A stretch of DNA of 64,000 nucleotides from contig CANLGL010000001.1 in the NCBI GenBank assembly GCA_947490345.1, forward strand, positions 17,399 to 81,398, read 5' to 3'. Positions 4,527-21,500 of this stretch are shown here, in pieces (position 1 is the stretch's first letter; every line of letters begins with the position of its first letter). The DNA comes from Deltaproteobacteria bacterium. GTDB lineage: Bacteria > Myxococcota_A > UBA796 > SXON01. Below the pieces are notes generated by a model. The model was not told the origin of the DNA. It saw only the letters and a list, made by a program, of their open reading frames with translations, and searched no databases. The translations under genes and the position numbers were made by a program.

Positions 4527-5312
4527 TCACTCGCTGCCGCGCGCCCGCCGATACGTCTCCCGCCGATCCTTCAGCGCGGGAAAGCTGGCCCGCGCGGCGC
4601 TCACGACGGCTGGATCAATGTCCGCCACGTAGACCGCCTCCGCCTCGGCCCCCCCCGCCAGGGTCTCCCCCCATGGGCTGATGAGCGCGCTGTCGCCTGC
4701 ATAGTGGAGCCCGTCGCCGTCGCCACAGCGGTTGACGCCCACGACGTACGCTTGCGTCTCGATGGCGCGCGCGCGCAGCAGGGTCTGCCAGTGAGCCCGC
4801 CGCCGCTCCGGCCAGTTGGCGATGACGACGAAGGCGTCCGTGTCATCGGCGACCAGGCGGAAGGGCTCGACGAAGCGCAGGTCGTAGCAGATCAGGGGCG
4901 TGATCCGCACGCCGCCGACGGTCCAGGTGTGGACTTCCTCGCCAGTTGCATAGTGCGCGCCCTCGCCGGCGAAGCTGAAGCCATGCAGTTTTCCGGCGCG
5001 CCGGACCTCGCCGTCTGGAGCGACCAGGACCGCGCAATTGCGAGGCAATCCCGCGTCCAGACGCAAAGGCACGCCGGCCAGGATGTGCACACCCAAGCCG
5101 CGAGCGACGTCGGCCAGGAAGCTCTCGGTGGGGCCGCCCGGGGCCTCGGCGACGCGCGCGCTCTGCATGGTGAAGCCGGTGGCGAAGAGCTCCGGCAGCA
5201 CGACCAGCGCGGCCCCGGCGGCGGCGGCCTCCTGAATGCGCGCTTCCGCACGGCGGAAGTTGGCGGCAGGGTCCTCCCAGACGATGTCGAGCTGTACGGC
5301 GGCGACGCGCAT
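4527..5312 (-). CDS. Carbon-nitrogen hydrolase (nitrilase/omega-amidase family)
   Basis: MRVAAVQLDIVWEDPAANF..., LVVLPELFATGF and PLICYDLRFVEPFR supply the E-K-C family motifs. The ATG at 5312 shares one base with the TGA of the upstream gene (TGATG). An alternative start lies at 5333. Confidence 0.85.
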   Translation of the reverse strand: MRVAAVQLDIVWEDPAANFRRAEARIQEAAAAGAALVVLPELFATGFTMQSARVAEAPGGPTESFLADVARGLGVHILAGVPLRLDAGLPRNCAVLVAPDGEVRRAGKLHGFSFAGEGAHYATGEEVHTWTVGGVRITPLICYDLRFVEPFRLVADDTDAFVVIANWPERRRAHWQTLLRARAIETQAYVVGVNRCGDGDGLHYAGDSALISPWGETLAGGAEAEAVYVADIDPAVVSAARASFPALKDRRETYRRARGSE

Positions 5313-7561
5313 CACGGCCCCGTAATCGACCATCGGGCGGGCGGAGCGAGGGCGGCGCCGACCGCGTCGACGTACAGCCGCGTCGGACCCGAGGCAAGCC
5401 GGCCAGCCAGCGCCGGCACCACCGGCAACGTGCCGGACCAGCCGCCGGGGCTGACCCGGTGCAGCACCACCGAGCCCTCCGACGTGCTCCACTCGGAGAA
5501 GGCGCCGGTGCCGACGAGAGCATCCATGCCAGCGGGATCGGGCCGAACTCCGGCGGGGAGCCCGATGGTGACCGTGGCGGTGGCCGCGGACGGGGTCGCG
5601 ATCTGCACGCCGACGTTCGCGACCACGCCGACGCGAGCGTTCTCGGGCGGCACTACGGCCACTTCGGCCGCGCCCGCTTCCGCTGGCCCCCACGGGGCGT
5701 AGCTGCGCGCGTGCCAGGAGTAGACGAGGCCGGGGGAGGGGACGGTCGCGGTGACCTCGATGCGGGCGGCGCTCCCGGGCCAGCGGGCGCGCATCGTGAC
5801 CGGCGCGTGTCCGGTGGCCGCCAGCCGCCCGTTGCCGACGACCGCCCCGTCAACGACGAGCTGCACGTCCGAGGCCACCGCGGCATCGCCGCCAAAAACC
5901 GCGCCGAGGGCGCGGAGCACCATCAGATTGGTGAAGCCATCGCCCCACCCGCCGCCGGGGCGGCGCGCGGCCAGGAGCCCCGTCGCGAGGGCGCTGGCGA
6001 GCGCCTTGTCGTCATGCAGCGCCAACGCCGCCGCGGCCGTGGCCTCCGCGATGCCGATGGGAACGCCGTCGGCGCGGAGATTCCCGGCGGGATCCAGGTG
6101 GGCGCCGTTCTGATCGCGGACCAGCGCCGCGGACAAGGTGGCCACCAGCGACTGCCGCAGCTCGACGTCGGCGATGGCGCCCGACGCCAGCGCCCAGGCC
6201 GCGATGGTCGGGTCGTCCAAGCGGGGTCGGTTCCGCACGAAGAATCCTTCCGCCCGCAGGCGCACGCCAGCGTCGTCGCCCGCCGCGCGCGCGCACGCTG
6301 CGGTTTGAAGGATGGCGCCGTCCACCGTGGCGGCCCCGTTGGTCCACGAACCATCGGGCGCCTGGGCGGCGCGGACCTTGTCGACCATCCGGTCGTGGAG
6401 GAGCCCCTCCGGCGTGCCCGCCGCGGCGCCGCGCAGGCCTTCGGCAAGCAGGCAGGCGTCGCCGGTGCTCGGAGCCCGCCCAGCCCGCGCCAGGGGCTGC
6501 CAGGCCCGGATGCGCAGCGAGCGGACGACCTCCGGGTCAACCTCGCCCGCATCCAGCCCGGTCGCCGCTTGGGCCAGCGCGAAATCGTAGACGGAGCCCG
6601 CGAGCGGCCACCGGGGCAGGATCGTGTCGTCGAACAGCGGGACCACGCCGCCGCCGTTGAGCTCTTCGCGGACCACCGATTCGGCGCCCGACCAGACCTG
6701 CACCACCAGCTCGCCGTCCGGGCCAGGTGCTCCGGCCGGGACCGCACTCACCCCGCCGCCCACCGCCCCGCTGCCGCGGCTGTCGACCGGGCGGCCGTAG
6801 GGGCGCACCGCGAGCGTTCGCTCCACCGAGTCGATGGCCCCGAACGAGGCCACGATGGTCGCGGTGCCAGCACGGTCGGCCACAAGTTGCACCGGCCGGG
6901 CCGACGTTCCCCCCGCCGACACCGACAGCGCCCCGCTTCCGGAGCCCCCCGCCCCAGTGATCCGTACCTCCAGCCGCTCGGAGAGGGCGCCGCCGGTGGT
7001 GTTGACCACTTGAACCGGGAGCGCGAGGACGTCCCCGGTGTAGAGCGCGTTGGGCACCACCACCTCGACGTAGGCGGGCAGCGTCGACAGCACCTCGAGC
7101 GTGGCGCCCGCCTGGGCGCCGCCCGGGCTGAAGCCAAGGCCGAGCACCCGCCAGGTGGTGAGGGAGTCGGGCACGGCCACGTCCAGGGTGGCGATTCCCG
7201 TCGGCCCGATCTCCACGGCGGGGGCCCACAAGAAGCTTTCCGGGAACCAGGAGCGGGCGGGCGCGGCGACTTCGTCGTCCTTCTCGTGCTTTTTGTCGGA
7301 GTCTTCGGTCTCTCCGGTGTTTCCGTCGCGAAAGCCGCCGCCCCCCAGTTGGAGGCCGGACACTTCGGAAATCATGTCAGGCATGGCGGGCGCGGCCGCC
7401 GGTGCATCCTCGTCGCGTCTGCGCTTGGCGCGGGCGCCGCGCTCGGTCTGCCCGACGGAGTCGGACCGGGGATCTTCTTTCTCCGTGCTCGTCGGACCGC
7501 GCGCCTCGAACGCCCTGTCCGCACACGAAAGCACCAACACCAACGGCAGGAAGCGGTTCAT
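5312..7561 (-). CDS. Alpha-2-macroglobulin/C3-like protein, C-terminal chain (lipoprotein; bait-like linker, A2M domain, TED-like domain without thioester, receptor-binding-like domain)
   Basis: Start is MNRFLPLVLVLSC (lipobox) at 7561. A charged low-complexity stretch follows, then SWFPESFLWAP...DSLTTWRVLGLG. TED-like repeats are present (APDGSW, RRPGGGWGD). There is no CxEQ motif. The upstream 500 aa of track ORF 5312..9091 are an Arg/Gly-rich artefact. Confidence 0.8.
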   Translation of the reverse strand: MNRFLPLVLVLSCADRAFEARGPTSTEKEDPRSDSVGQTERGARAKRRRDEDAPAAAPAMPDMISEVSGLQLGGGGFRDGNTGETEDSDKKHEKDDEVAAPARSWFPESFLWAPAVEIGPTGIATLDVAVPDSLTTWRVLGLGFSPGGAQAGATLEVLSTLPAYVEVVVPNALYTGDVLALPVQVVNTTGGALSERLEVRITGAGGSGSGALSVSAGGTSARPVQLVADRAGTATIVASFGAIDSVERTLAVRPYGRPVDSRGSGAVGGGVSAVPAGAPGPDGELVVQVWSGAESVVREELNGGGVVPLFDDTILPRWPLAGSVYDFALAQAATGLDAGEVDPEVVRSLRIRAWQPLARAGRAPSTGDACLLAEGLRGAAAGTPEGLLHDRMVDKVRAAQAPDGSWTNGAATVDGAILQTAACARAAGDDAGVRLRAEGFFVRNRPRLDDPTIAAWALASGAIADVELRQSLVATLSAALVRDQNGAHLDPAGNLRADGVPIGIAEATAAAALALHDDKALASALATGLLAARRPGGGWGDGFTNLMVLRALGAVFGGDAAVASDVQLVVDGAVVGNGRLAATGHAPVTMRARWPGSAARIEVTATVPSPGLVYSWHARSYAPWGPAEAGAAEVAVVPPENARVGVVANVGVQIATPSAATATVTIGLPAGVRPDPAGMDALVGTGAFSEWSTSEGSVVLHRVSPGGWSGTLPVVPALAGRLASGPTRLYVDAVGAALAPPARWSITGP

Positions 7562-10500
7562 TGCAGCTCCGTGGCCACGTAGAGCGGCCAGTTCTCTTCG
7601 TCTTCGGGCAGGTGGCGGGCGTCGGCGACCATGATGCGAGGGTCGGTGAGCGCCAGGAGGTCCTGCGGCAGGATGCCCAAGGAGAGCGGCCGGCCAAAGG
7701 GGTCGGTGGCAGGGTGTTTTGCGAGTGTCGCCTGCCACAAACCCGCCATCGCCGCGGCGGTGAGGACCTCGCCTTCCGCCGCGTCGGCCTCCCACGCTCG
7801 CACCGCGACGCGCGCCTCCGCGTACAGGGGCCAGAACGCGGCCGCGAGGGGCGTTTCGACGTCCGGCGTCCCGTCCGCCCGAGTCGACACGGCATCCGCC
7901 CCAGGTTGGGCCGGCGGGAGTCCGGTGATGCGAAGAACGGTTGCCTGCAGCGCGTTGTCGCCCGCGATCTGCCCGGTCTGCAGGAGCTTGGCATCCAGGA
8001 ATCCGAACGCAGGGCTGTCGCTCGACGCCAGAACCGTGGTGTCGGCCCAGTCGGCCGCCCCCGGCAGCGGGGCCAGCGCGCGCATCGCGACGTCCACGCC
8101 GGCCAACGTGACGACGGCGGCGGTCGGTCCTGTGCGGCCGGTGGACTTCACCGTGATCGTGCCCTTTTCGCCCGGTTTCCAGGCCGTCTCTGCGGAGAGG
8201 GCCAGGTGCAGCTCCTCGGCCGGCCGCACGTACATCACCGCGCGGGCGCCCCCCCACTCCACGCTCGCGAACCCCGACACGCCCTCCGGGACGGTGAAGT
8301 GGCCGACGCGGGCCTCGGGATCGAAGGTGATCTTTTCCAGGAGGCGGTCGCCCTGCATCAGCCGCAGCTCCTTGGGCAGGGTGCCGGTGAAGCTCTTGCC
8401 ACGGACGGCGGTGAGCTCGATCTCGTCCTTGGGCGCGACCACCACCTCGGAGAAGCGAAGCCGCAGTGGCGGGACCTCGCCGATGGGCATGCGCAGGACC
8501 GTGTCGCCGACGCTCTGCACGTCCACCACGAAGGCAAAGCCGGGCCAGCTGGCCGGGCTGGTTCGGGAGGAGACGGAGCTGGCGCCGACCTGATTCGTGA
8601 TCAACACCACGCCGGCCGCCTCGACGTCGGTGGCGGCCACCCGGAGCCCCGCGAGTGCCCGCTGAACACAGCTGGCAGCCCCGGCCAGTTCGTCGAAGCC
8701 ATCGGCGTCCACCGCCTGAATCCGCACCGTGCTGGCCCCTGCCGCTACTTCCCAGACCCAGGCCTGGGGCAGCGCGCCGCCGACGAGCCCAGATGCGCAC
8801 TCCGGGTGGTCGGCGAGCGCGTCGTCCACCGCCACCTGCACGGCCCCCGCGTCGCCGAAGAAGGCGGACACCTCCGCTTCCAGCGAGGCGGCGCCCTGAT
8901 CGTCGAGCCCAAGCGTCACCGCCACGAGGCGCGGCCCGGAGCCGCGGATGCCCACGCCCGACGCCGCGCCCAGCAGGCACCGGTGCATTCCCGGGCTGAG
9001 CGCGGCTCCCCACAAGTCGCTCACGCCGCCGGCAGTCACCCGCAAGGTGAGCGCTGCAGAGGTCGAGCCTCGGCGCGCGCACGGCCGCCACGCGCGGGTA
9101 AGCCCATCCGCCAAGCCCTCCAGCGCCAGGTCGGCACCACCCGCCACGGCGTCGCTGAGCCCGGAGATCACCACCGGCTCGGGAGGCTTCGTGGGGCGGA
9201 CGGGAAGCGTCGGCTCCGTCACCGTGATCGCCGCGCCGGGATCGAGCTGAAAGCGAGCCACCCCATCGGCATCGGCGACGGCCTCCACACCAGGATCACG
9301 TTTGTCCCACTCCCGCCGCAAGGTCAGCCGCGCTCCTGGAACCGTGGCGCCCGCGGGCGTCGTCACCCGCAGGTACATTCGGTTGTTGGCGTCGGCGACC
9401 AGCCCGCCGCCGAGCTCCGTCACCGCTTCGACCGCGATCGAGTCCTCGCTCAGCAGCAGACTGGCGCTCGCCCCCGCCGTCTCGCCCGCCGCCTCGGTCA
9501 CCGCGGCCGACACCGCCACGGTCACGCGCCCGACCAGATCGTCCGGCACTTCGCCCAGGTCCAGCCGGAAGCGACCTTCGCGATCCGTCGTGAGCGCGAC
9601 CTCGGTCGGCCAGTCGTTGGGCGGCGGCCAGTCGCCGTCGGTGCGCAGCGTCAGCCGAACCGGTCCGTCCTGCACCGGCGCGCCGGAGGTGTAGCGGGCG
9701 ACCCCGTTGAGGCCCAGCCCGGAGGCCGGTCCGAACCACGCCCGGTCAGGAGTGAGCTCGACCGTGAAGCGCGGCAGCCGGAACTCCCGCACCTCGAAGC
9801 TCCGCCGGGTGTTCACGTCCCCGGACTGGAGCCCCACCGTCCAAACTCCGACGGGCGCATCGTCGGCGAGCGGGAACGTGAAGTCAGCGACCCCGGTGGC
9901 CCCGGTGTTGTCCTTTTCCTCGTACGCCAACTCCCCGCTGGGGTCGTAGACCTGCCAGCGGCCCGGTCGTTGGAGCGCGGGCGCCAACGAGCCCGCCTCC
10001 AGCAGCACAGCGCGCGCTTTCACGACCTGGCCGGGCCGGTATAGGGGCGCATCCGTCAGCAGGTGCTCCAGGGCCGGACGGAAAAGGGGCAGCGGTGCGT
10101 CGACGGTCATGCTGCCGCGGGGTCCCTCGGCCCGCGCGCGGAGGATGTAGTCGCCGTCGGGCAGCGCCTCGGGGAGCATGACCGACGCCTCCTGGACCCC
10201 GAGCTCGACCCAGTCCCAGCCACTGCCCCAGCGAGAGTGCAGCACCTCGATCGGGGTCTCGGCGCCTGCCGCATCGACGAGGGTGAGCGTGGGCGAGAAG
10301 CGCCGCAGTGGTTGGGTGTCGATGAGCTGGAGCTGGTCGCCGTAGAGCTGCGCCGATGCGCGCACGCGCACCGTGCCCTTGACTCCCCGCCCGACGCGGT
10401 CGGCTTCCACGGAGAGGCTGGCAATCGCGCCCGCGGGGCACTGGTAGACCACGATGCCGTCGCGCCACCACAAGCTCCAGCACGGACCCAAGACCCACCC

Positions 10501-10581
10501 ACACAGCACGGCCGAGGTGACGAATACGGTCACGACACCGAGGAGCAGTTTTTTTCCAGCGGACATCATCGGAGCCGACAT
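7558..10581 (-). CDS. Alpha-2-macroglobulin/C3-like protein, N-terminal chain (membrane-anchored macroglobulin-domain array)
   Basis: N-terminal TM segment KKLLLGVVTVFVTSAVLCGWVL. MG motifs TDAPLYRPGQVVKARAVLLE, VGVWTVGL, FEVREFRLPRFTVEL and VVTLAGVDVAMRALAP. Its TGA overlaps the ATG of the next gene (ATGA at 7561-7558). Confidence 0.8.
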   Translation of the reverse strand: MSAPMMSAGKKLLLGVVTVFVTSAVLCGWVLGPCWSLWWRDGIVVYQCPAGAIASLSVEADRVGRGVKGTVRVRASAQLYGDQLQLIDTQPLRRFSPTLTLVDAAGAETPIEVLHSRWGSGWDWVELGVQEASVMLPEALPDGDYILRARAEGPRGSMTVDAPLPLFRPALEHLLTDAPLYRPGQVVKARAVLLEAGSLAPALQRPGRWQVYDPSGELAYEEKDNTGATGVADFTFPLADDAPVGVWTVGLQSGDVNTRRSFEVREFRLPRFTVELTPDRAWFGPASGLGLNGVARYTSGAPVQDGPVRLTLRTDGDWPPPNDWPTEVALTTDREGRFRLDLGEVPDDLVGRVTVAVSAAVTEAAGETAGASASLLLSEDSIAVEAVTELGGGLVADANNRMYLRVTTPAGATVPGARLTLRREWDKRDPGVEAVADADGVARFQLDPGAAITVTEPTLPVRPTKPPEPVVISGLSDAVAGGADLALEGLADGLTRAWRPCARRGSTSAALTLRVTAGGVSDLWGAALSPGMHRCLLGAASGVGIRGSGPRLVAVTLGLDDQGAASLEAEVSAFFGDAGAVQVAVDDALADHPECASGLVGGALPQAWVWEVAAGASTVRIQAVDADGFDELAGAASCVQRALAGLRVAATDVEAAGVVLITNQVGASSVSSRTSPASWPGFAFVVDVQSVGDTVLRMPIGEVPPLRLRFSEVVVAPKDEIELTAVRGKSFTGTLPKELRLMQGDRLLEKITFDPEARVGHFTVPEGVSGFASVEWGGARAVMYVRPAEELHLALSAETAWKPGEKGTITVKSTGRTGPTAAVVTLAGVDVAMRALAPLPGAADWADTTVLASSDSPAFGFLDAKLLQTGQIAGDNALQATVLRITGLPPAQPGADAVSTRADGTPDVETPLAAAFWPLYAEARVAVRAWEADAAEGEVLTAAAMAGLWQATLAKHPATDPFGRPLSLGILPQDLLALTDPRIMVADARHLPEDEENWPLYVATELQ

Positions 10582-10639
10582 CTTCTACCCGGCGCGTGCC
10601 GACATCAACGGCCCATCGCGGGTTCCGGTATCACGCAAC

Positions 10640-10747
10640 GGGGGAAGGAGGCGGGGCGCGGCCTCCCCCTACCGCGGCGTACCATCCGGCCTCCAAGCTG
10701 CGCTTTCCGGCCTGCGGTCCCGGGCGCGTTCGAATCACGCGTCGGGA
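10640..10747 (-). repeat. Composite REP-like structured intergenic element, copy a
   Basis: Contains the shared core TACCATCCGGCCTCCAAGCTGCGCTTTCCGGCC, flanked by a G-run/C-run hairpin and by hairpin GGCGCGT-tcgaatc-ACGCGTC. On the minus strand it reads GGTAGGGGG plus a hairpin. Confidence 0.7.
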
Positions 10748-10770
10748 TCGGAAGAATCACGCCGACGTCG

Positions 10771-12342
10771 TCACGCAGATTCGATTCCGAGCAGCTTGCC
10801 GAGGATCACGCGATCGCCCTGCAATGCCGTCCGCTGCATGTAGAACGCGAGGCCGCGCTCGCCACCGAGCTCCTCGCCACCACCGGCCCGGCCCGGGCCG
10901 CCATGGATGCAGCCGGGCAAGACCATCCCCGGTGCGATCACCTGATCGGCCACCTTCGACGAGGTCAACATCATCCGCCCGAGCCACGGCGCGCACTCGA
11001 GCATCATCGTGCCGAGCCAGGCGCGGTCGTCGCCGTAGACCGTCGACATCAGGCTGCCCTGGCCCCTCGCGAGCGCTGCGGAGCCGGCTTCGGCGCTGCC
11101 GTCGTAGGGCACCAGCGAGACCGAGGGGCCGAAGACCTCCAGGTCATGAACCGGGCCGGCCGCGGCGCTCGCCAGGCGAATCACGGTCGGCGCCACGAAG
11201 TAGCCCTTGCCTTCCGGGGCGTGCTTCCCATCGATGCGATCGGGCCCGCCGGTCACGACGCGCCCGTGTTCGGCTATCTGGCGGATGCCGCTCAGCACGT
11301 CGCGCAACTGCGAGGCCGTACTCACCGGTCCCATGCCGACCCCGTCCACCAGCGGGTCCCCGACGGTGATGGCGCTGAGCCCCTCGACGACCGACTCCTC
11401 GAACGCGGCGATGAGCGAGTCTGGGACCATCACGCGGCGGATCGCCGTGCACTTCTGGCCCGCCTTCTGGGTCATGTCGGTCACGACGTGGCGAACGGCG
11501 GTGTTCCACAGCTCCGAGCCGACTTCGACATCGGGGCCGAGCACAGCCGCGTTGAGCGAGTCGGCCTCGACGTTGACGCGCACGCCGCGCTCGGCGAAGC
11601 CCGGGGTGTTCCGCAACATCGCGCCGGTGGCGTTGCTGCCGGTGAACGCCAGCGAGTCCTGGGCGCCGAGCCGGGACAACAGGTCGCCGGTCGAGCCGCA
11701 GATGAGCTGGAACGCGCCCTCGGGGACGAGGCCGCTCTCGACCAGCAGCTCCGTCATCCGGTGGGTGAGCTGCGCGGTGGCCGTCGCCGGTTTGGTCACG
11801 ATGGGTGCCCCGGCGAGCCAGGCGACAGCGGCCTTTTCGAAGGTACCCCAGGCCGGGAAGTTGAACGCGTTGATGTGGACGGCGACGCCCTGCCGCGGCA
11901 GGAGCACATGCTGCCCGCCGAAGCGCGGCGCGCGAGTCAATTGTGCCAACTCCCCGTCGAGGAGCCACGGGCGATCGCCGATCCGCGTCGCAAGCACCTC
12001 ACCGAAGGCAGCGTAGGCCCCCAGCGTCCCGATGGCGCCATCCACGTCGAACTTGGCGTCCCCTCGGGTGCTCCCGCCGTTGATCTGGGCGAGGTCCAGA
12101 AGCTCCTCGCGGTGGGCGTGGAACAGCTTCTGCACACCCTTGATCATCGCCGCGCGCGCCGACCACGGCTGTTTCCGAAGCACCGCGCCGGCTTGGCGAG
12201 CGTGGGCGAGCACGGCGCCGTGGTCGATGCCTTCCGCCGAGGTCTCGGCGATCACGGCTTCGGTGGCGGGATTCACGAGCTGTGCGGGCTTGCCCGTGCC
12301 ATCGAACCAGGCACCCGCGACGTAGGACTTCAGGCGCACCAT
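10771..12342 (-). CDS. paaZ: 3,4-dehydroadipyl-CoA semialdehyde dehydrogenase-like protein (PaaZ aldehyde-dehydrogenase domain only, no MaoC hydratase domain)
   Basis: Long collinear matches to the PaaZ N-domain as I remember it: GVAVHINAFNFPAWG, KPATATAQLTH, VEADSLNAAVLG, TQKAGQKCTAIRRVMVP and HGGPGRAGGGEELGG. Confidence 0.85.
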   Translation of the reverse strand: MVRLKSYVAGAWFDGTGKPAQLVNPATEAVIAETSAEGIDHGAVLAHARQAGAVLRKQPWSARAAMIKGVQKLFHAHREELLDLAQINGGSTRGDAKFDVDGAIGTLGAYAAFGEVLATRIGDRPWLLDGELAQLTRAPRFGGQHVLLPRQGVAVHINAFNFPAWGTFEKAAVAWLAGAPIVTKPATATAQLTHRMTELLVESGLVPEGAFQLICGSTGDLLSRLGAQDSLAFTGSNATGAMLRNTPGFAERGVRVNVEADSLNAAVLGPDVEVGSELWNTAVRHVVTDMTQKAGQKCTAIRRVMVPDSLIAAFEESVVEGLSAITVGDPLVDGVGMGPVSTASQLRDVLSGIRQIAEHGRVVTGGPDRIDGKHAPEGKGYFVAPTVIRLASAAAGPVHDLEVFGPSVSLVPYDGSAEAGSAALARGQGSLMSTVYGDDRAWLGTMMLECAPWLGRMMLTSSKVADQVIAPGMVLPGCIHGGPGRAGGGEELGGERGLAFYMQRTALQGDRVILGKLLGIESA

Positions 12343-13414: not shown

Positions 13415-16459
<3,045 letters not shown>

Positions 16460-16527
16460 GGGATTCCGGGGTCGGGAGAGTGTACCCGCAATGCCCGCCG
16501 GAAGGTGAATCGATCGGCTGCGGTTAG

Positions 16528-17694
16528 ATGCCCGGCCCCGTGTTCTTGCATCGTCTTTTCTATGTTTTGCAGTTGGGCTCGATGGCCGCGTTGTTGCCCC
16601 TTTTGGGGGGGCGCTTCGAAGCTGCGGGTTTCGACGGGCTGACGATCGGCGGTTTGATGGCGACCTTTCCGCTCGGTCGCCTGCTCGCCGCGCCTTTTTG
16701 GGCGGTCCTGGCCGATCGGTACCGCGTGGCGGGCCTCGTGCTCCGATTGTCTGCGGTCCTGTCCGGTGTCGCAGGGATGGCGTTGGCGCGATCGGAGTCC
16801 ATCCCAGCCTTGGCGGTGGCGATCTTCGTCTTCGCGGCGACGCGCGCGCCGATCGGCTCGGTGCTCGACGCCCTCGTGCTGGGCCGGTTGGCTGAGCTGG
16901 GCCGTCCGACGGCGGAGTACGGACGGATTCGGTTGTGGGGGTCGCTCGGGTTTCTGGCCGGCGTGCTTCTGGCCAGCAACTGGGTGGCGACGGGCTTGCC
17001 GCCGCACCTGCTCGCCGACGCAACGCTCGCGGCGGCCGCCGTGGTCAGCTTCGGCTTTCCGCTGCGAGGGGCCGGTGGGCCCGCTCCGATCATGCCGGCG
17101 CTGCGGGAGCTTGCGGCCTCCCCGTTCCTGGTGCCGCTCCTGGTGACCGGCGCGCTTCAGGCGCTCACGATGTCGGTCTACGACACCTTCTTCTCGGTCC
17201 ACGTCGCTGCCCTCGGGTTGCCTGAGGGCGTCGTCGGCGCGTCGGTGGCGCTCGGGGTCGGCTGCGAGGTGCTCTTGATGAGCTTCGGGCGCCCATTCTT
17301 GCTGCGCGTGGGACCGGCGCGGGGTCTTTTGCTGGCGGCGCTCTCCGGGATCCCCCGCTGGTTGGTCACCGCCACCGTCAGCGATCCCGTCGTGTTGGTC
17401 GCCATCCAGGCGCTCCATGGTTTCGGCTTTGCCCTCTTCTGGCTGTCGGGGGTCCACCGCATGGCGCAGGCCGCGCGGCCAGAGATCGCCGCGTCATCCC
17501 AGAGCCTCTGGGCGGCGGCCACCTACGGCTTTGGCGCGTTGGTCGGGGCGGGGCTGGCCGGGTTCGCGCGTCGTGAGCTGGGCTCGGACGGGATATTCTG
17601 GATGCTCGCTTTCGTCTCGCTCCTGGCGACGGTGAGCGCGGTCTGGTTGTGGCGGGTGGATCGAGCTCACTTCGCCGGCGGGCCGGCGCGCTGA
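16528..17694 (+). CDS. MFS transporter
   Basis: 388 aa with about 12 hydrophobic helices. MFS-like loop motif FPLGRLLAAPFWAVLADRYR. Confidence 0.8.
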   Translation: MPGPVFLHRLFYVLQLGSMAALLPLLGGRFEAAGFDGLTIGGLMATFPLGRLLAAPFWAVLADRYRVAGLVLRLSAVLSGVAGMALARSESIPALAVAIFVFAATRAPIGSVLDALVLGRLAELGRPTAEYGRIRLWGSLGFLAGVLLASNWVATGLPPHLLADATLAAAAVVSFGFPLRGAGGPAPIMPALRELAASPFLVPLLVTGALQALTMSVYDTFFSVHVAALGLPEGVVGASVALGVGCEVLLMSFGRPFLLRVGPARGLLLAALSGIPRWLVTATVSDPVVLVAIQALHGFGFALFWLSGVHRMAQAARPEIAASSQSLWAAATYGFGALVGAGLAGFARRELGSDGIFWMLAFVSLLATVSAVWLWRVDRAHFAGGPAR

Positions 17695-18920: not shown

Positions 18921-21500
18921 TCAGAACTCGGCGCGCACACCCAGGAAGGGGCGGGTGGGCAGGTGGGCGAGCATCGTGTCCACGCGTTCCCCGTCCTCGA
19001 CCGAGACGATCGGCAAGAAGTCGTTCTGGGCATAGGTCACGTTGAGGACCTCCATGTACACGCTCCATCGCATCTTCAGAAACGCGCGCCGCCACTCCAG
19101 GCGAAGATCGAGCTGGTGAAAGTTGGAGAGCTCTTCGTCGTTGAGCCCGGTGAGCGCCACGGTGTCCGCACCAGCAACCTCGACCGAGCTCATCGGCCGA
19201 CCGGAGTGGTAGTCGTAGCGGGCGCCGAGCCGCCACTCAGGCGCCACCTGCACCTCGGCGCTGACCCCGAGCGTCAGGTCCTGAACGTGACCGGGAACAG
19301 TCGTCTTGGCGTACACTTCGTTGAGCGGATTGAACCGTTCGGCGCTGAGCCAGCCGGCGTTGAACGTTGCTTCCCACCGGTCCCATCGCGTCGCGATGAT
19401 CACATCGACGCCCGCGTTGTGGCCGGTTCCACGGTTGGAATAGCCTGGCGTGGCGCTGGATGACACGTCTGGGTTCACCACGAGGTCCCACATCCAACTG
19501 TAGTAGCCCTCGACGCGGACAAAACTCCCCTGACCAAGCGGGACCCCCTGATCGAGCCCGACCACCAGATGAGCCGCTTTCTCCGAGCGGATGTCGGGAT
19601 TGCCGTACGTCGGGTCGATCACCAGCGGATCCTCGACGACGTGGTGGTACAGGCCCCCGGACACCTTGGGGATGGTGGCACTCGGCAGCGGCACCGAGAC
19701 GCCGGCGGAGGGGGAGAGCAGGAGCTCGTCGGCCCGCCCGACGTACGTGGCCCGCAGGCCCGTTCGCGTTCGGAGCGGTGTGGTTTCGGCGTCATCCCCG
19801 CCGTACCGATGTTCGGCGTACCCGCTGACCGTCGGGGAGAAGTCGGTCTGGGAGAGGGTGAGCTGCGGCAGGCCGAAATCGGCGAGGGGGCGGGCTGCCC
19901 ACGTCGGCAAGGTGCGGGTATCGTCCACCGGGCCATCGAAGGTCGTGCGTCGGCCCATCGCGCTCGCCCCCACAAGGAGCTTGTGCCGGGACCCCAGACC
20001 GAGCGCCAGGTCGGAGCGGCCGAAGAGCTGAAGGCGGTGGGTGGTCCGGTCGGCGGTGCCGGCGAAGTCGCGGAACATGGTCGAGTCGTCTGTCGAGACC
20101 GACAGGGTCGTCTGCACGCTTCCGCGCGCGCCCACCGGCGCCAGGTGATCCACCGTGGCCAGGTACAGCACATCGTTGAGGCGGAAGCTTCCGGGGATGG
20201 TGAACGTGCTGGTGTCCTCAGAGTCGACCAGCGCGAGCGAGTCGCTGGCCCGCATCAGGGTCAGCAAGAATCGGTGGCCGGCGGGACGCCAGGCGGCGCG
20301 GGCGCTGACCTCGTCGTACTCCGGGGCGGCGATGGCGGTGTCCAGTAGGTCCAGCGCCTGCATCACCCCGAAGTAGGCCTCCAGGTAGCTGCGGCGCGCC
20401 GCGACGGCGAAGGTGAAGTTGTCGCCGATGGGGCCCATCACCAGGCCGCGGACGGTGCTCATCGACAAGTCGACCGAGCCGTCCAGGTCGCGTGCGTCGT
20501 CCTTGGGGGCGCCGTCCCAGCTCTGGATGTCCAGGACGGCGGAGGTGGTGTCGGGGTACTCCGCCGGCGCCGCACTGGCGTGGAAACGCACCTTCTTGAC
20601 CATGTCCGGGTTGAAGAGGCTGTTGAAGCCGGCCAGGTGGTAGGGGTTGTCCAGCGGGACCCGGTCGAGAAGGAACACCACCTCGCCCGAGGTGAAGCCG
20701 CGGACTGAGAACGAGGACAGCACGTCGCCGTCGCTCGCGACGCCTGGGAGCTTGTGCACGGCCCGATTGACGTCCTCCAGCGCGCCCGGCGTGCTCTCGA
20801 TGTCGCGACGGGTGAGCTCGTAGACACCGGTCGTCGGCTCGAGGTCGGGCTTGCGCTCCGCTCGCTTTACCTCCCGCCAGTTATGTCGCGACGCGTAGAC
20901 GACGATCTCCTCCGCGGGGCCGTTGGAGACGAGCTCAACGACGAGCTCGCGGTTTTCGCCGCCGTGGACGTCCACCTCCAACCCCGCGGGCGCGAAGGCC
21001 GGGTGGGAGAGGGTGACCTTCCACCTTCCGCTAGACAAGAACGGCACCGTGGCGGTGCCGTCGGCGCCCACGTTGAGGTCGCGCACCGCCGTTCCGGGGC
21101 CGGTGAGGTGGAGCGCGACGTTCGGCACGTCCAGCCCATCGCCGTCGACCACGCGGATGCGGAGCGAAGCAGGCGCGGAGTTGCCGGTCTCGTCGGCGTG
21201 CTGGAGTCCGAAGGAGAACGCGAAGTCGACCGTGGCGGGGACCGGGGCGCCGGCGTCGTCGGTGGCGGGGGCGAAGCTCAGCAGGCGCGCCGCAGCGACG
21301 GCGGCCGCGTCTACATCCGCTCGCACCGGCTGGGTGACCGTCACCTCGGTGACCCGCCCTTCGGCGTCGACTGCGAGTCGTAAGACGACCGTGCCACCTA
21401 CCTTGTCCTGCACCGCTGCCGTCGGGTAGATCGGGCTGGACGAGATCGTCAGGACTGGGAGAGACGCGCCGAGCGCCAGGGTCCAGAGCAACAGCATCAT
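18921..21500 (-). CDS. TonB-dependent receptor with an N-terminal TonB-C-like domain and a carboxypeptidase-regulatory-like domain
   Basis: GGTVVLRLAVDAEGRVTEVTV...LLSFAPA is TonB_C-like. LRIRVVDGDGLDVPNVALHL is CarbopepD_reg-like. Plug motif SFSVRGFTSGEVVFLLDRVPLDNP. The barrel ends in ...FLGVRAEF. Its start overlaps the stop of the KS gene (ATGA). Confidence 0.85.
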   Translation of the reverse strand: MMLLLWTLALGASLPVLTISSSPIYPTAAVQDKVGGTVVLRLAVDAEGRVTEVTVTQPVRADVDAAAVAAARLLSFAPATDDAGAPVPATVDFAFSFGLQHADETGNSAPASLRIRVVDGDGLDVPNVALHLTGPGTAVRDLNVGADGTATVPFLSSGRWKVTLSHPAFAPAGLEVDVHGGENRELVVELVSNGPAEEIVVYASRHNWREVKRAERKPDLEPTTGVYELTRRDIESTPGALEDVNRAVHKLPGVASDGDVLSSFSVRGFTSGEVVFLLDRVPLDNPYHLAGFNSLFNPDMVKKVRFHASAAPAEYPDTTSAVLDIQSWDGAPKDDARDLDGSVDLSMSTVRGLVMGPIGDNFTFAVAARRSYLEAYFGVMQALDLLDTAIAAPEYDEVSARAAWRPAGHRFLLTLMRASDSLALVDSEDTSTFTIPGSFRLNDVLYLATVDHLAPVGARGSVQTTLSVSTDDSTMFRDFAGTADRTTHRLQLFGRSDLALGLGSRHKLLVGASAMGRRTTFDGPVDDTRTLPTWAARPLADFGLPQLTLSQTDFSPTVSGYAEHRYGGDDAETTPLRTRTGLRATYVGRADELLLSPSAGVSVPLPSATIPKVSGGLYHHVVEDPLVIDPTYGNPDIRSEKAAHLVVGLDQGVPLGQGSFVRVEGYYSWMWDLVVNPDVSSSATPGYSNRGTGHNAGVDVIIATRWDRWEATFNAGWLSAERFNPLNEVYAKTTVPGHVQDLTLGVSAEVQVAPEWRLGARYDYHSGRPMSSVEVAGADTVALTGLNDEELSNFHQLDLRLEWRRAFLKMRWSVYMEVLNVTYAQNDFLPIVSVEDGERVDTMLAHLPTRPFLGVRAEF

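Follow-up and report, generated by a model that had tools for sequence, protein, structure and literature searches.

The 64,000-nt window studied here (contig CANLGL010000001.1 of assembly GCA_947490345.1, positions 17,399 to 81,398 of the forward strand; local G+C content about 70-75%) comes from a deltaproteobacterium classified in Myxococcota_A. On its reverse strand it carries two overlapping genes which are predicted to encode the front and back halves of one protein of the alpha-2-macroglobulin (A2M)/C3 type, a split that appears to be Myxococcota-wide. The first gene (7558..10581) encodes a protein of 1007 aa and 105 kDa, hereafter the N-chain, which is the beta-chain-like half according to its translation, Pfam, AlphaFold2 and Foldseek. 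The second gene (5312..7561) encodes the C-chain, of 749 aa and 74 kDa in its mature form, the alpha-chain-like half according to the same sources and to hhalign. Both open reading frames display a coding-type pattern of G+C content by codon position, with its typical bias at third positions (GC3). The genes meet at a coupling junction (7558..7570): a GGAG at 7567-7570 is followed, after a gap of about 5-6 nt, by an ATGA at 7558-7561 in which the C-chain ATG lies over the N-chain TGA. This overlap had been pointed out in an earlier note on this DNA, and the motifs quoted there were all recovered: TDAPLYRPGQVV, FEVREFRLPRFTVEL and LAGVDVAMRAL in the translation of 7558..10581, and in the C-chain the start MNRFLPLVLVLSC, the charged low-complexity stretch with RAKRRR and the sequence SWFPESFLW...DSLTTWRVLG.

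The N-chain is organized as follows: a transmembrane anchor, macroglobulin (MG) domains MG1 to MG4, a cysteine-containing insert, MG5, the first half of MG6, an LNK-like segment and a helical tail. Its AlphaFold2 model has a predicted local distance difference test (pLDDT) score of 86.7. The hydrophobic helix at aa 8-30 (10492..10560), seen in the model and in the alignment of N-termini, would serve as a signal anchor or a signal peptide; the same alignment of homologs revealed no conserved lipobox, a transmembrane-like helix being found instead. Directly after this helix we noted an invariant juxtamembrane motif, GPCW...(13 aa)...CP (aa 34-49, 10435-10482), which probably forms a disulfide-closed loop at the surface of the membrane. 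MG1 begins directly after the anchor, as in eukaryotic proteins. Four sandwiches are modelled at aa 51-166, 170-264, 272-378 and 383-455, and MG2 is recognized by Pfam at aa 173-263 (9793..10065; PF01835, E = 3.4e-16). With the family profile, MG2 was aligned to residues ~103-265 of human A2M/A2ML1 and to residues 355-484 of ECAM. Between MG4 and MG5 lies a family-specific insert of about 200 aa (aa 470-664, 8590..9174), modelled as four helix and beta-hairpin units, each with one invariant cysteine (C501, C535, C595 and C638). It is the least conserved folded portion of the N-chain, has no Pfam match in the window protein or its homologs, and we know of no counterpart at the MG4/MG5 position in other A2Ms. 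With C34 and C48 near the membrane, the N-chain thus has six invariant cysteines, which fits a periplasmic, disulfide-bonded protein.

The insert is followed by a full sandwich (aa 678-763) and then by a four-strand half sandwich containing LAGVDVAMRAL (aa 770-820, 8122..8274). The latter is assigned to MG6-beta from the AlphaFold2 strands (770-814), from A2M_BRD matches in homologs and from hhalign (probability 80%). The remainder of the chain (aa 821-1007, 7561..8121) consists of the LNK-like segment and the conserved helical tail ending in LPEDEENWPLYVATELQ, and fills the bait/anaphylatoxin slot upstream of the break. Many of its residues are invariant, and its conservation is 0.63 compared to a whole-protein average of 0.56. 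Helices are modelled at aa 909-933, 942-955 and 998-1005, in agreement with the helical tail of about 100 aa that had been proposed; it spans ~aa 909-1005, and no homology of it to single-chain A2Ms was detectable. Pfam scans of 33 N-chain homologs detected MG2 in all 33, a CarboxypepD_reg-like sandwich in 32 and, weakly, A2M_BRD (PF07703) in 27. The A2M_BRD matches always cover positions ~87-140 of the 140-position model and fall at ~aa 792-853; a single homolog exceeds the gathering score, and the window's own N-chain alone gives no PF07703 match.

The C-chain comprises a lipoprotein signal, a disordered linker, the second half of MG6, MG7, CUB, a TED-like domain devoid of thioester, and MG8. 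Its AlphaFold2 model, built with a 31-sequence alignment, has a pLDDT of 82. The short signal (aa 1-13, 7523..7561) has the lipobox VLSC with Cys13. The linker (aa 14-100, 7262..7522) is charged, rich in Pro, Ala, Gly and Ser, and includes RAKRRR; pLDDT is below 50 for aa 1-96. MG6-alpha (WFPESFLW...DSLTTWRVLG; aa 101-160, 7082..7261) is identified by Pfam A2M from profile position 1 and by alignments to C3 and C5. The Pfam A2M match itself (PF00207) spans aa 109-194 (E = 1.2e-10) and is found in 31 of 31 homologs. Modelled without a partner, MG6-alpha reaches a pLDDT of only 55-72, aa 97-135 being of low confidence. A beta region (aa 136-290) precedes the alpha/alpha TED-like domain (aa 293-556, 5894..6685), defined by the AlphaFold2 helices and hhalign. 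The chain ends with the CUB return strands and a C-terminal MG8/receptor-binding-like sandwich (aa 557-749, 5315..5893; strands 564-747). The receptor-binding-like end that the earlier note had suspected is accordingly a beta-sandwich in the model, and in hhalign the alignment runs on to where the A2M_recep/bMG10 region ends in single-chain A2Ms.

The absence of a CxEQ thioester motif, first remarked for the window protein, extends to the whole family. Neither 'EQ' nor C.EQ occurs in the window C-chain, which has just three cysteines (C13, C370 and C423); no C.EQ was found among ~100 C-chain homologs. Outside the lipobox, no C-chain cysteine is conserved. In hhalign alignments the GCxEQ segment of single-chain A2Ms lands in a gap of the C-chain profile. 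Pfam models for TED, A2M_recep and bMG10 give essentially no matches on the C-chain family, and only profile-profile and fold comparisons reach that far.

In every full-length C-chain homolog, 63-128 aa of linker separate an N-terminal membrane anchor from WFPE. These linkers contain ~50% Pro/Ala/Gly/Ser, ~16% acidic and ~11% basic residues, and are the least conserved segment of the chain (0.27), MG6-alpha being the most conserved (0.74). The linker, which stands in the slot of C5a/C3a of the complement alpha chains, is a candidate bait as well as a tether. RAKRRR was considered as a conserved furin-like site and rejected, as it is not conserved in the family. Three types of anchor were observed: a lipobox in ~60% of C-chains, a single transmembrane-like helix in Myxococcaceae and Archangiaceae, and a polytopic domain of ~400 aa in one subgroup. 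The proposal of separate export signals, transmembrane on one chain and lipobox on the other, therefore describes the window pair correctly and does not generalize, the lipobox being only one of the three forms. In the polytopic subgroup (loci L081-L083 with P0319, 1088 aa; also P0321, P0341 and P0342), where the lipobox is replaced, an N-chain of 1013 aa with MG2 still precedes with a 4-nt overlap; its neighbours include Peptidase_S41/Tricorn_C1, Peptidase_M28, PAD_porph and Peptidase_C14 genes. One further C-chain, P0237, has a lipobox plus an extra domain of ~190 aa.

The correspondence of the two chains to consecutive parts of one A2M was examined by profile and fold comparisons. Alignment of the C-chain family to three single-chain bacterial A2Ms with hhalign covers 621 columns, beginning with the A2M domain of these proteins and running to their C-terminus (probability 99.9, E = 7.5e-33). 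Foldseek matches the N-chain to the ~640-residue beta chains of C3, C4 and C5 (E ~1e-22, TM-score per target 0.41-0.47) and also to the N-terminal parts of single-chain A2Ms. For the C-chain, the alpha chains of C5 and C3 top the PDB list (E about 1e-30 to 1e-27), with TM-scores of ~0.40 to native C3, C5 and A2ML1 and ~0.26 to C3b. Taken with the Pfam matches to MG2 and A2M, these predicted structures and profiles show the homology of the two halves to consecutive A2M parts, as had been supposed. The general features of the superfamily are found across the pair, i.e. MG domains including MG2, an A2M domain after the bait-region domain, and the CUB-TED-MG8 order; the CxEQ thioester and synthesis as one polypeptide are not.

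In single-chain A2Ms, Pfam finds PF07703, a variable bait segment, then PF00207. Given this order, the end of A2M_BRD in the N-chain and the start of A2M in the C-chain put the gene boundary in the bait segment. A search of PDB sequences gave the same register: C-chain aa 102-188 correspond to C5 765-848 (alpha-chain residues 87-170), and aa 101-176 to residues 14-94 of C3b alpha'. From these alignments, the C-chain resumes on the FPESWLW beginning of the second half of MG6. The break is thus placed by the alignments between where A2M_BRD ends, in the first half of MG6, and where Pfam A2M begins, in the second half, i.e. in the bait slot, which bears out the idea that the split falls where C3 and C4 are broken. 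In C3, MG6 is likewise divided over the two chains as MG6-beta and MG6-alpha. Together, the half sandwich near the N-chain end (~50 residues) and the beginning of the C-chain (~60 residues) amount to one MG domain, and both half-domains have a lowered pLDDT when each chain is modelled alone.

To what extent this split is shared was analyzed in a one-genome-per-species scan, which gave 312 loci; the results below concern the 80 of these that were kept. The organism labels are largely of Myxococcota (Corallococcus, Myxococcus, Archangium, Cystobacter, Citreicoccus, Pyxidicoccus, Kofleriaceae, Haliangium), the remainder being metagenome-assembled genomes labelled generically or discordantly (proteobacterium, Alphaproteobacteria, Enterobacterales). 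The N-chain gene lies directly upstream of the C-chain gene in 72 of the 80 loci, and 7 of the other 8 have no upstream DNA. In all 72 the stop and start codons overlap, and they are distributed as follows: 52 ATGA, 17 GTGA, 2 TTGA and 1 TGATG. Across these loci the C-chains are 32-57% identical to the window protein. A Shine-Dalgarno-like purine run precedes the C-chain start in 69 of 72. It is provided by the GAG-xxx-CCN codons of the usual N-chain end, E-[K/A/S]-P, in which the third base of the terminal Pro codon is also the first base of the C-chain start codon. Homologs form 102 clusters for the C-chain (~720-820 aa, with PF00207 only) and 276 for the N-chain (~1000-1050 aa). A C-chain profile search of 1.84 billion representatives returned 1,299 matches at E <= 1e-30; the top 150 were inspected, and all are stand-alone C-chains except one protein of 1801 aa.

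That protein, P0235 (L084:1501-6906), was considered as a natural fused ortholog and rejected: it results from a 1-nt indel in a nanopore contig, where the conserved N-chain tail (ending in LPEDVESWPAWVAKERP and a stop) and the ATGA are intact in another frame. On the same contig a neighbouring carbamoyl-phosphate synthase gene also looks broken. The fused-looking entry is one of two observations that could suggest that the split reflects a pseudogene or an indel introduced in sequencing or assembly, or that a single chain is made by programmed -1 frameshifting across the ATGA; the other is that the C-chain frame is open for 578 codons 5' of its ATG, so that a long fusion is possible. We find such explanations hardly tenable. 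The overlap is shared by all 72 independent genomes and metagenome-assembled genomes, on which ground a junction indel or pseudogene was rejected. Programmed frameshifting was rejected as well, since the nucleotides before the stop vary (GAGGCCCC, GAGAAGCC, GAGGCGCC and others) with no conserved slippery heptamer, and a C-chain signal or anchor always begins right at the junction. The earlier suggestion that the split is hard-wired genetically is thereby upheld, the junction indel that would have undone it being ruled out. As far as these loci allow us to judge, the fission at gene level is ancient and fixed throughout Myxococcota.

One locus harbours an orphan C-chain paralog (L064:9728-12160, 810 aa, Pfam A2M), with an FGE-sulfatase-domain gene upstream instead of an N-chain gene. 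It is situated ~22 kb from a complete pair (L072) on the same contig. Such an orphan, as well as the presence of an export signal and an anchor on each chain, would be expected if the products of the fission were now independent proteins, adjacency and overlap reflecting co-expression only. Several observations make this improbable: each chain ends or begins with half an MG sandwich, incomplete alone; the overlap persists in 72 of 72 loci across C-chain identities of 32-57%; no segment of the C-chain is better conserved than MG6-alpha; and the orphan itself has a complete pair nearby.

Among the genes surrounding the 80 loci, clustering of open reading frames showed that only the N-chain and C-chain pair is conserved. 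In the window, a C-N hydrolase gene (4527..5312, reverse strand; CN_hydrolase Pfam E = 1.2e-42), a YafV/Nit-like amidohydrolase whose NCBIfam PRK10438-like match is below cutoff, overlaps the C-chain stop with its start by 1 nt (TGATG). It has no signal peptide, whereas the C-chain is an exported lipoprotein. A homolog is found near the pair in 1 of 80 loci, the closest relative (L002), ~570 bp away and without overlap. The 1-nt overlap pointed out for this third gene is thus correct; the gene does not belong to the conserved unit, and a role as third subunit was rejected. Upstream, on the same strand, is a PaaZ-like aldehyde dehydrogenase gene (10771-12342), also found upstream in 15-16 loci of the window's clade. 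The 189-bp spacer separating it from the N-chain gene (10582-10770) contains a G+C-rich inverted repeat, GGGGGAGGC...GCCTCCTTCCCCC, at ~10641-10669 (reverse strand), with no T-run; a simple scan of the spacer found no sigma-70-like promoter.

Other neighbours are, like the PaaZ-like dehydrogenase, lineage-specific: a MurB-like gene, an MltD-like gene, an AAA ATPase and a Ser/Thr kinase. In ~8 loci (e.g. L011:11953-12855) the C-chain gene is followed after 6 bp by the MurB-like gene, and the MltD-like gene, for a LysM-rich lytic transglycosylase, is upstream in 9 loci (e.g. L016:3767-5740); both were identified by eye. Their connection with peptidoglycan is reminiscent of the pbpC linkage seen in type I A2Ms. 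Among the recurrent neighbour clusters inspected in the 80 loci, no pbpC, penicillin-binding protein, mag-operon or protease partner was found. Further away in the window, two large proteins are encoded on the reverse strand: one of 1202 aa (13415-17023) with 11 MopE-type metal-binding repeats and a C-terminal C-type lectin domain, and one of 859 aa (18921-21500) with TonB_C, CarboxypepD_reg and TonB-dependent-receptor Plug domains.

Comparison with known systems was carried out to situate the pair. The closest likeness is to complement C3, C4 and C5, which give the best fold matches for both chains in the same sequence register. There too the beta-like chain ends in the first half of MG6 and a linker, and the alpha-like chain resumes MG6 after an N-terminal extension; C5, moreover, has no thioester. 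The break of complement arises by furin-type processing of one precursor, whereas here it lies between two genes with separate export. Other differences from complement are that the place of the anaphylatoxin domain is taken by a membrane-anchored disordered linker, that C345C is absent, the C-chain ending at MG8, that no inter-chain cysteine is conserved, and that the N-chain has the extra insert of ~200 aa and the helical tail of ~100 aa upstream of the break. A second parallel is the 'cut' form of insect TEP1, whose N- and C-terminal fragments remain together although the protease-sensitive region that joins the MG6 halves has been severed. TEP1, in contrast, is broken by proteolysis of a single precursor, contains a thioester, and is a soluble protein stabilised by LRIM1/APL1C.

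The two recognised types of bacterial A2M are both single polypeptides, as the earlier note had stated (PMC5764988). Type I (ECAM/YfhM, Sa-A2M) shares with the pair the MG, bait, CUB, TED, MG order and a membrane-tethered periplasmic location. It consists, however, of a single lipoprotein with a lipobox before MG1, a CLEQ thioester, extra MG0/NIE domains and a pbpC linkage, none of which is found in the pair. In particular, the position of MG2 in the N-chain (aa 170-264, compared to 355-484 in ECAM) leaves no room for the extra N-terminal domains of ECAM. Type II (MagD/YfaS) shares the lack of CxEQ, and MagD is periplasmic and associated with the inner membrane. MagD is nevertheless a single 165-kDa polypeptide anchored via partner proteins, whereas the pair has two chains with their own anchors, and type II belongs to a six-gene mag/yfa operon with MagA/B/C/E/F, compared to only two genes conserved over the 80 loci. 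The sizes of the two products (105 and 74 kDa) are near those of the fragments of bait-cleaved Sa-A2M (102 and 77 kDa) and MagD (91 and 74 kDa) (PMC5764988); in vivo, the 165-kDa MagD is processed to 100 kDa (PMC3735191).

The family profiles of both chains score metazoan A2ML1, A2M, CD109, TEP1 and C5 above E. coli ECAM. The N-chain profile reaches ECAM at E = 2.6e-13, with 52 bits versus 81 bits for metazoan proteins among PDB sequences; the C-chain profile retrieves no bacterial A2M structure from the PDB (ECAM, Sa-A2M) at E <= 0.01. No NCBIfam model matches either chain, and the database names are only 'MG2 domain-containing protein' and 'alpha-2-macroglobulin family protein'. A full-text literature search found no description of a two-gene bacterial A2M, and reviews list none. 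Fold and domain order make the pair a member of the A2M superfamily; it lacks the defining features of type I, of type II (thioester loss apart) and of complement.

With moderate confidence, we think that the two chains probably form a periplasmic heterodimer, made by coupled translation and tethered to the membrane, in which MG6 is completed in trans and which works as a non-covalent protease trap. The ATGA overlap would couple translation, so that the chains are made in about equal amounts. Each would then be exported separately and tethered at the periplasmic face of the membrane, the N-chain (105 kDa) by its hydrophobic helix and the C-chain (74 kDa) by its lipid anchor and the disordered linker of ~90 residues; such double tethering would raise the chance of the chains meeting. 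A periplasmic location is suggested by the six invariant N-chain cysteines and by the signal or anchor sequences of both chains. N-chain aa 770-820 and C-chain aa 101-160 would associate into MG6 as the beta and alpha chains of C3, C4 and C5 do. Hints of a shared interface are the high conservation of MG6-alpha, which exceeds that of any other C-chain segment, the above-average conservation of the N-chain tail, and the lowered pLDDT of the half-domains alone. The complex would most likely guard the envelope, by analogy with the thioester-less MagD, which traps protease non-covalently after bait cleavage (PMC5764988).

How such a trap might be fired has to be considered in the light of its architecture. 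In canonical A2Ms scission of the bait is the trigger. Here the polypeptide is interrupted at the bait position from the start, which rules out a cut between the halves as the trigger. The best candidate, a speculative one, would be cleavage of the exposed C-chain linker, topologically equivalent to the removal of C3a/C5a; candidate latches are the C-chain tether, which lies in the C3a/C5a slot, and the conserved N-chain helical tail. A more specific form of the mechanism would have the pair work like a membrane-bound complement component, pre-nicked and held in a metastable state by the tether and by the helical tail in the anaphylatoxin slot. A protease severing the tether would then act as the convertase does in removing C3a/C5a, free an end resembling the alpha' N-terminus and fire the conformational change. 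In this full form the proposal seems to us doubtful.

Several points weigh against a trapping heterodimer. We infer the association of the chains from the homology of the two halves, and the orphan paralog suggests that the chains need not always be paired. Trapping requires a spring-loaded native state, which a molecule with an open bait site from the outset may be unable to keep. The neighbour clusters of the 80 loci contain no conserved protease or inhibitor partner, the TED-like domain reaches no Pfam TED model, and the unconserved linker sequence (0.27) suits a passive tether as well as a bait. The lipoprotein form could be sorted to the inner or to the outer membrane.

Some of these points would agree with a heterodimer that forms and traps no protease, having instead another envelope role as a structural or adhesive component, a scaffold associated with the cell wall or a ligand-binding module. 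Such a molecule could be permanently nicked and dispense with the thioester, which is absent family-wide, and its TED-like domain could diverge beyond the Pfam model. The lack of a conserved protease-related partner, the MurB-like (~8 loci) or MltD-like (9 loci) peptidoglycan genes present in some lineages and the family-specific cysteine insert of the N-chain point the same way. We consider this alternative possible but rather unlikely: the full trap architecture (MG ring, CUB, TED, MG8) is kept under purifying selection, MagD traps protease with no thioester (PMC5764988), and, although this is weak evidence, the C-chain model is nearer to native than to activated conformers (TM-score ~0.40 versus ~0.26). 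The protease-trapping heterodimer is the interpretation that we retain.

The pair represents a third, phylum-wide architecture of bacterial A2M, broken genetically at the place where proteolysis activates A2Ms or matures C3, C4 and C5. The break falls inside a beta-sandwich domain, whose halves are predicted to be exported and anchored separately. It constitutes a natural experiment on what holds the spring-loaded native state and on how macroglobulins without thioester trap proteases, and the split, separately expressible halves may be of use for engineering. If the pre-nicked, complement-like mechanism were true, convertase-type activation and assembly of MG6 in trans would exist in bacteria, and the closeness of the profiles to metazoan A2M and complement rather than to ECAM would be relevant to how the eukaryotic family of thioester proteins arose. 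The family includes the cultivable genera Myxococcus, Corallococcus and Archangium, so that these predictions can be tested in culture; Corallococcus macrosporus, for instance, carries the pair, with LILAB_04745 as N-chain homolog. Myxobacteria being predators that secrete proteases, an envelope macroglobulin may be a means of self-protection.

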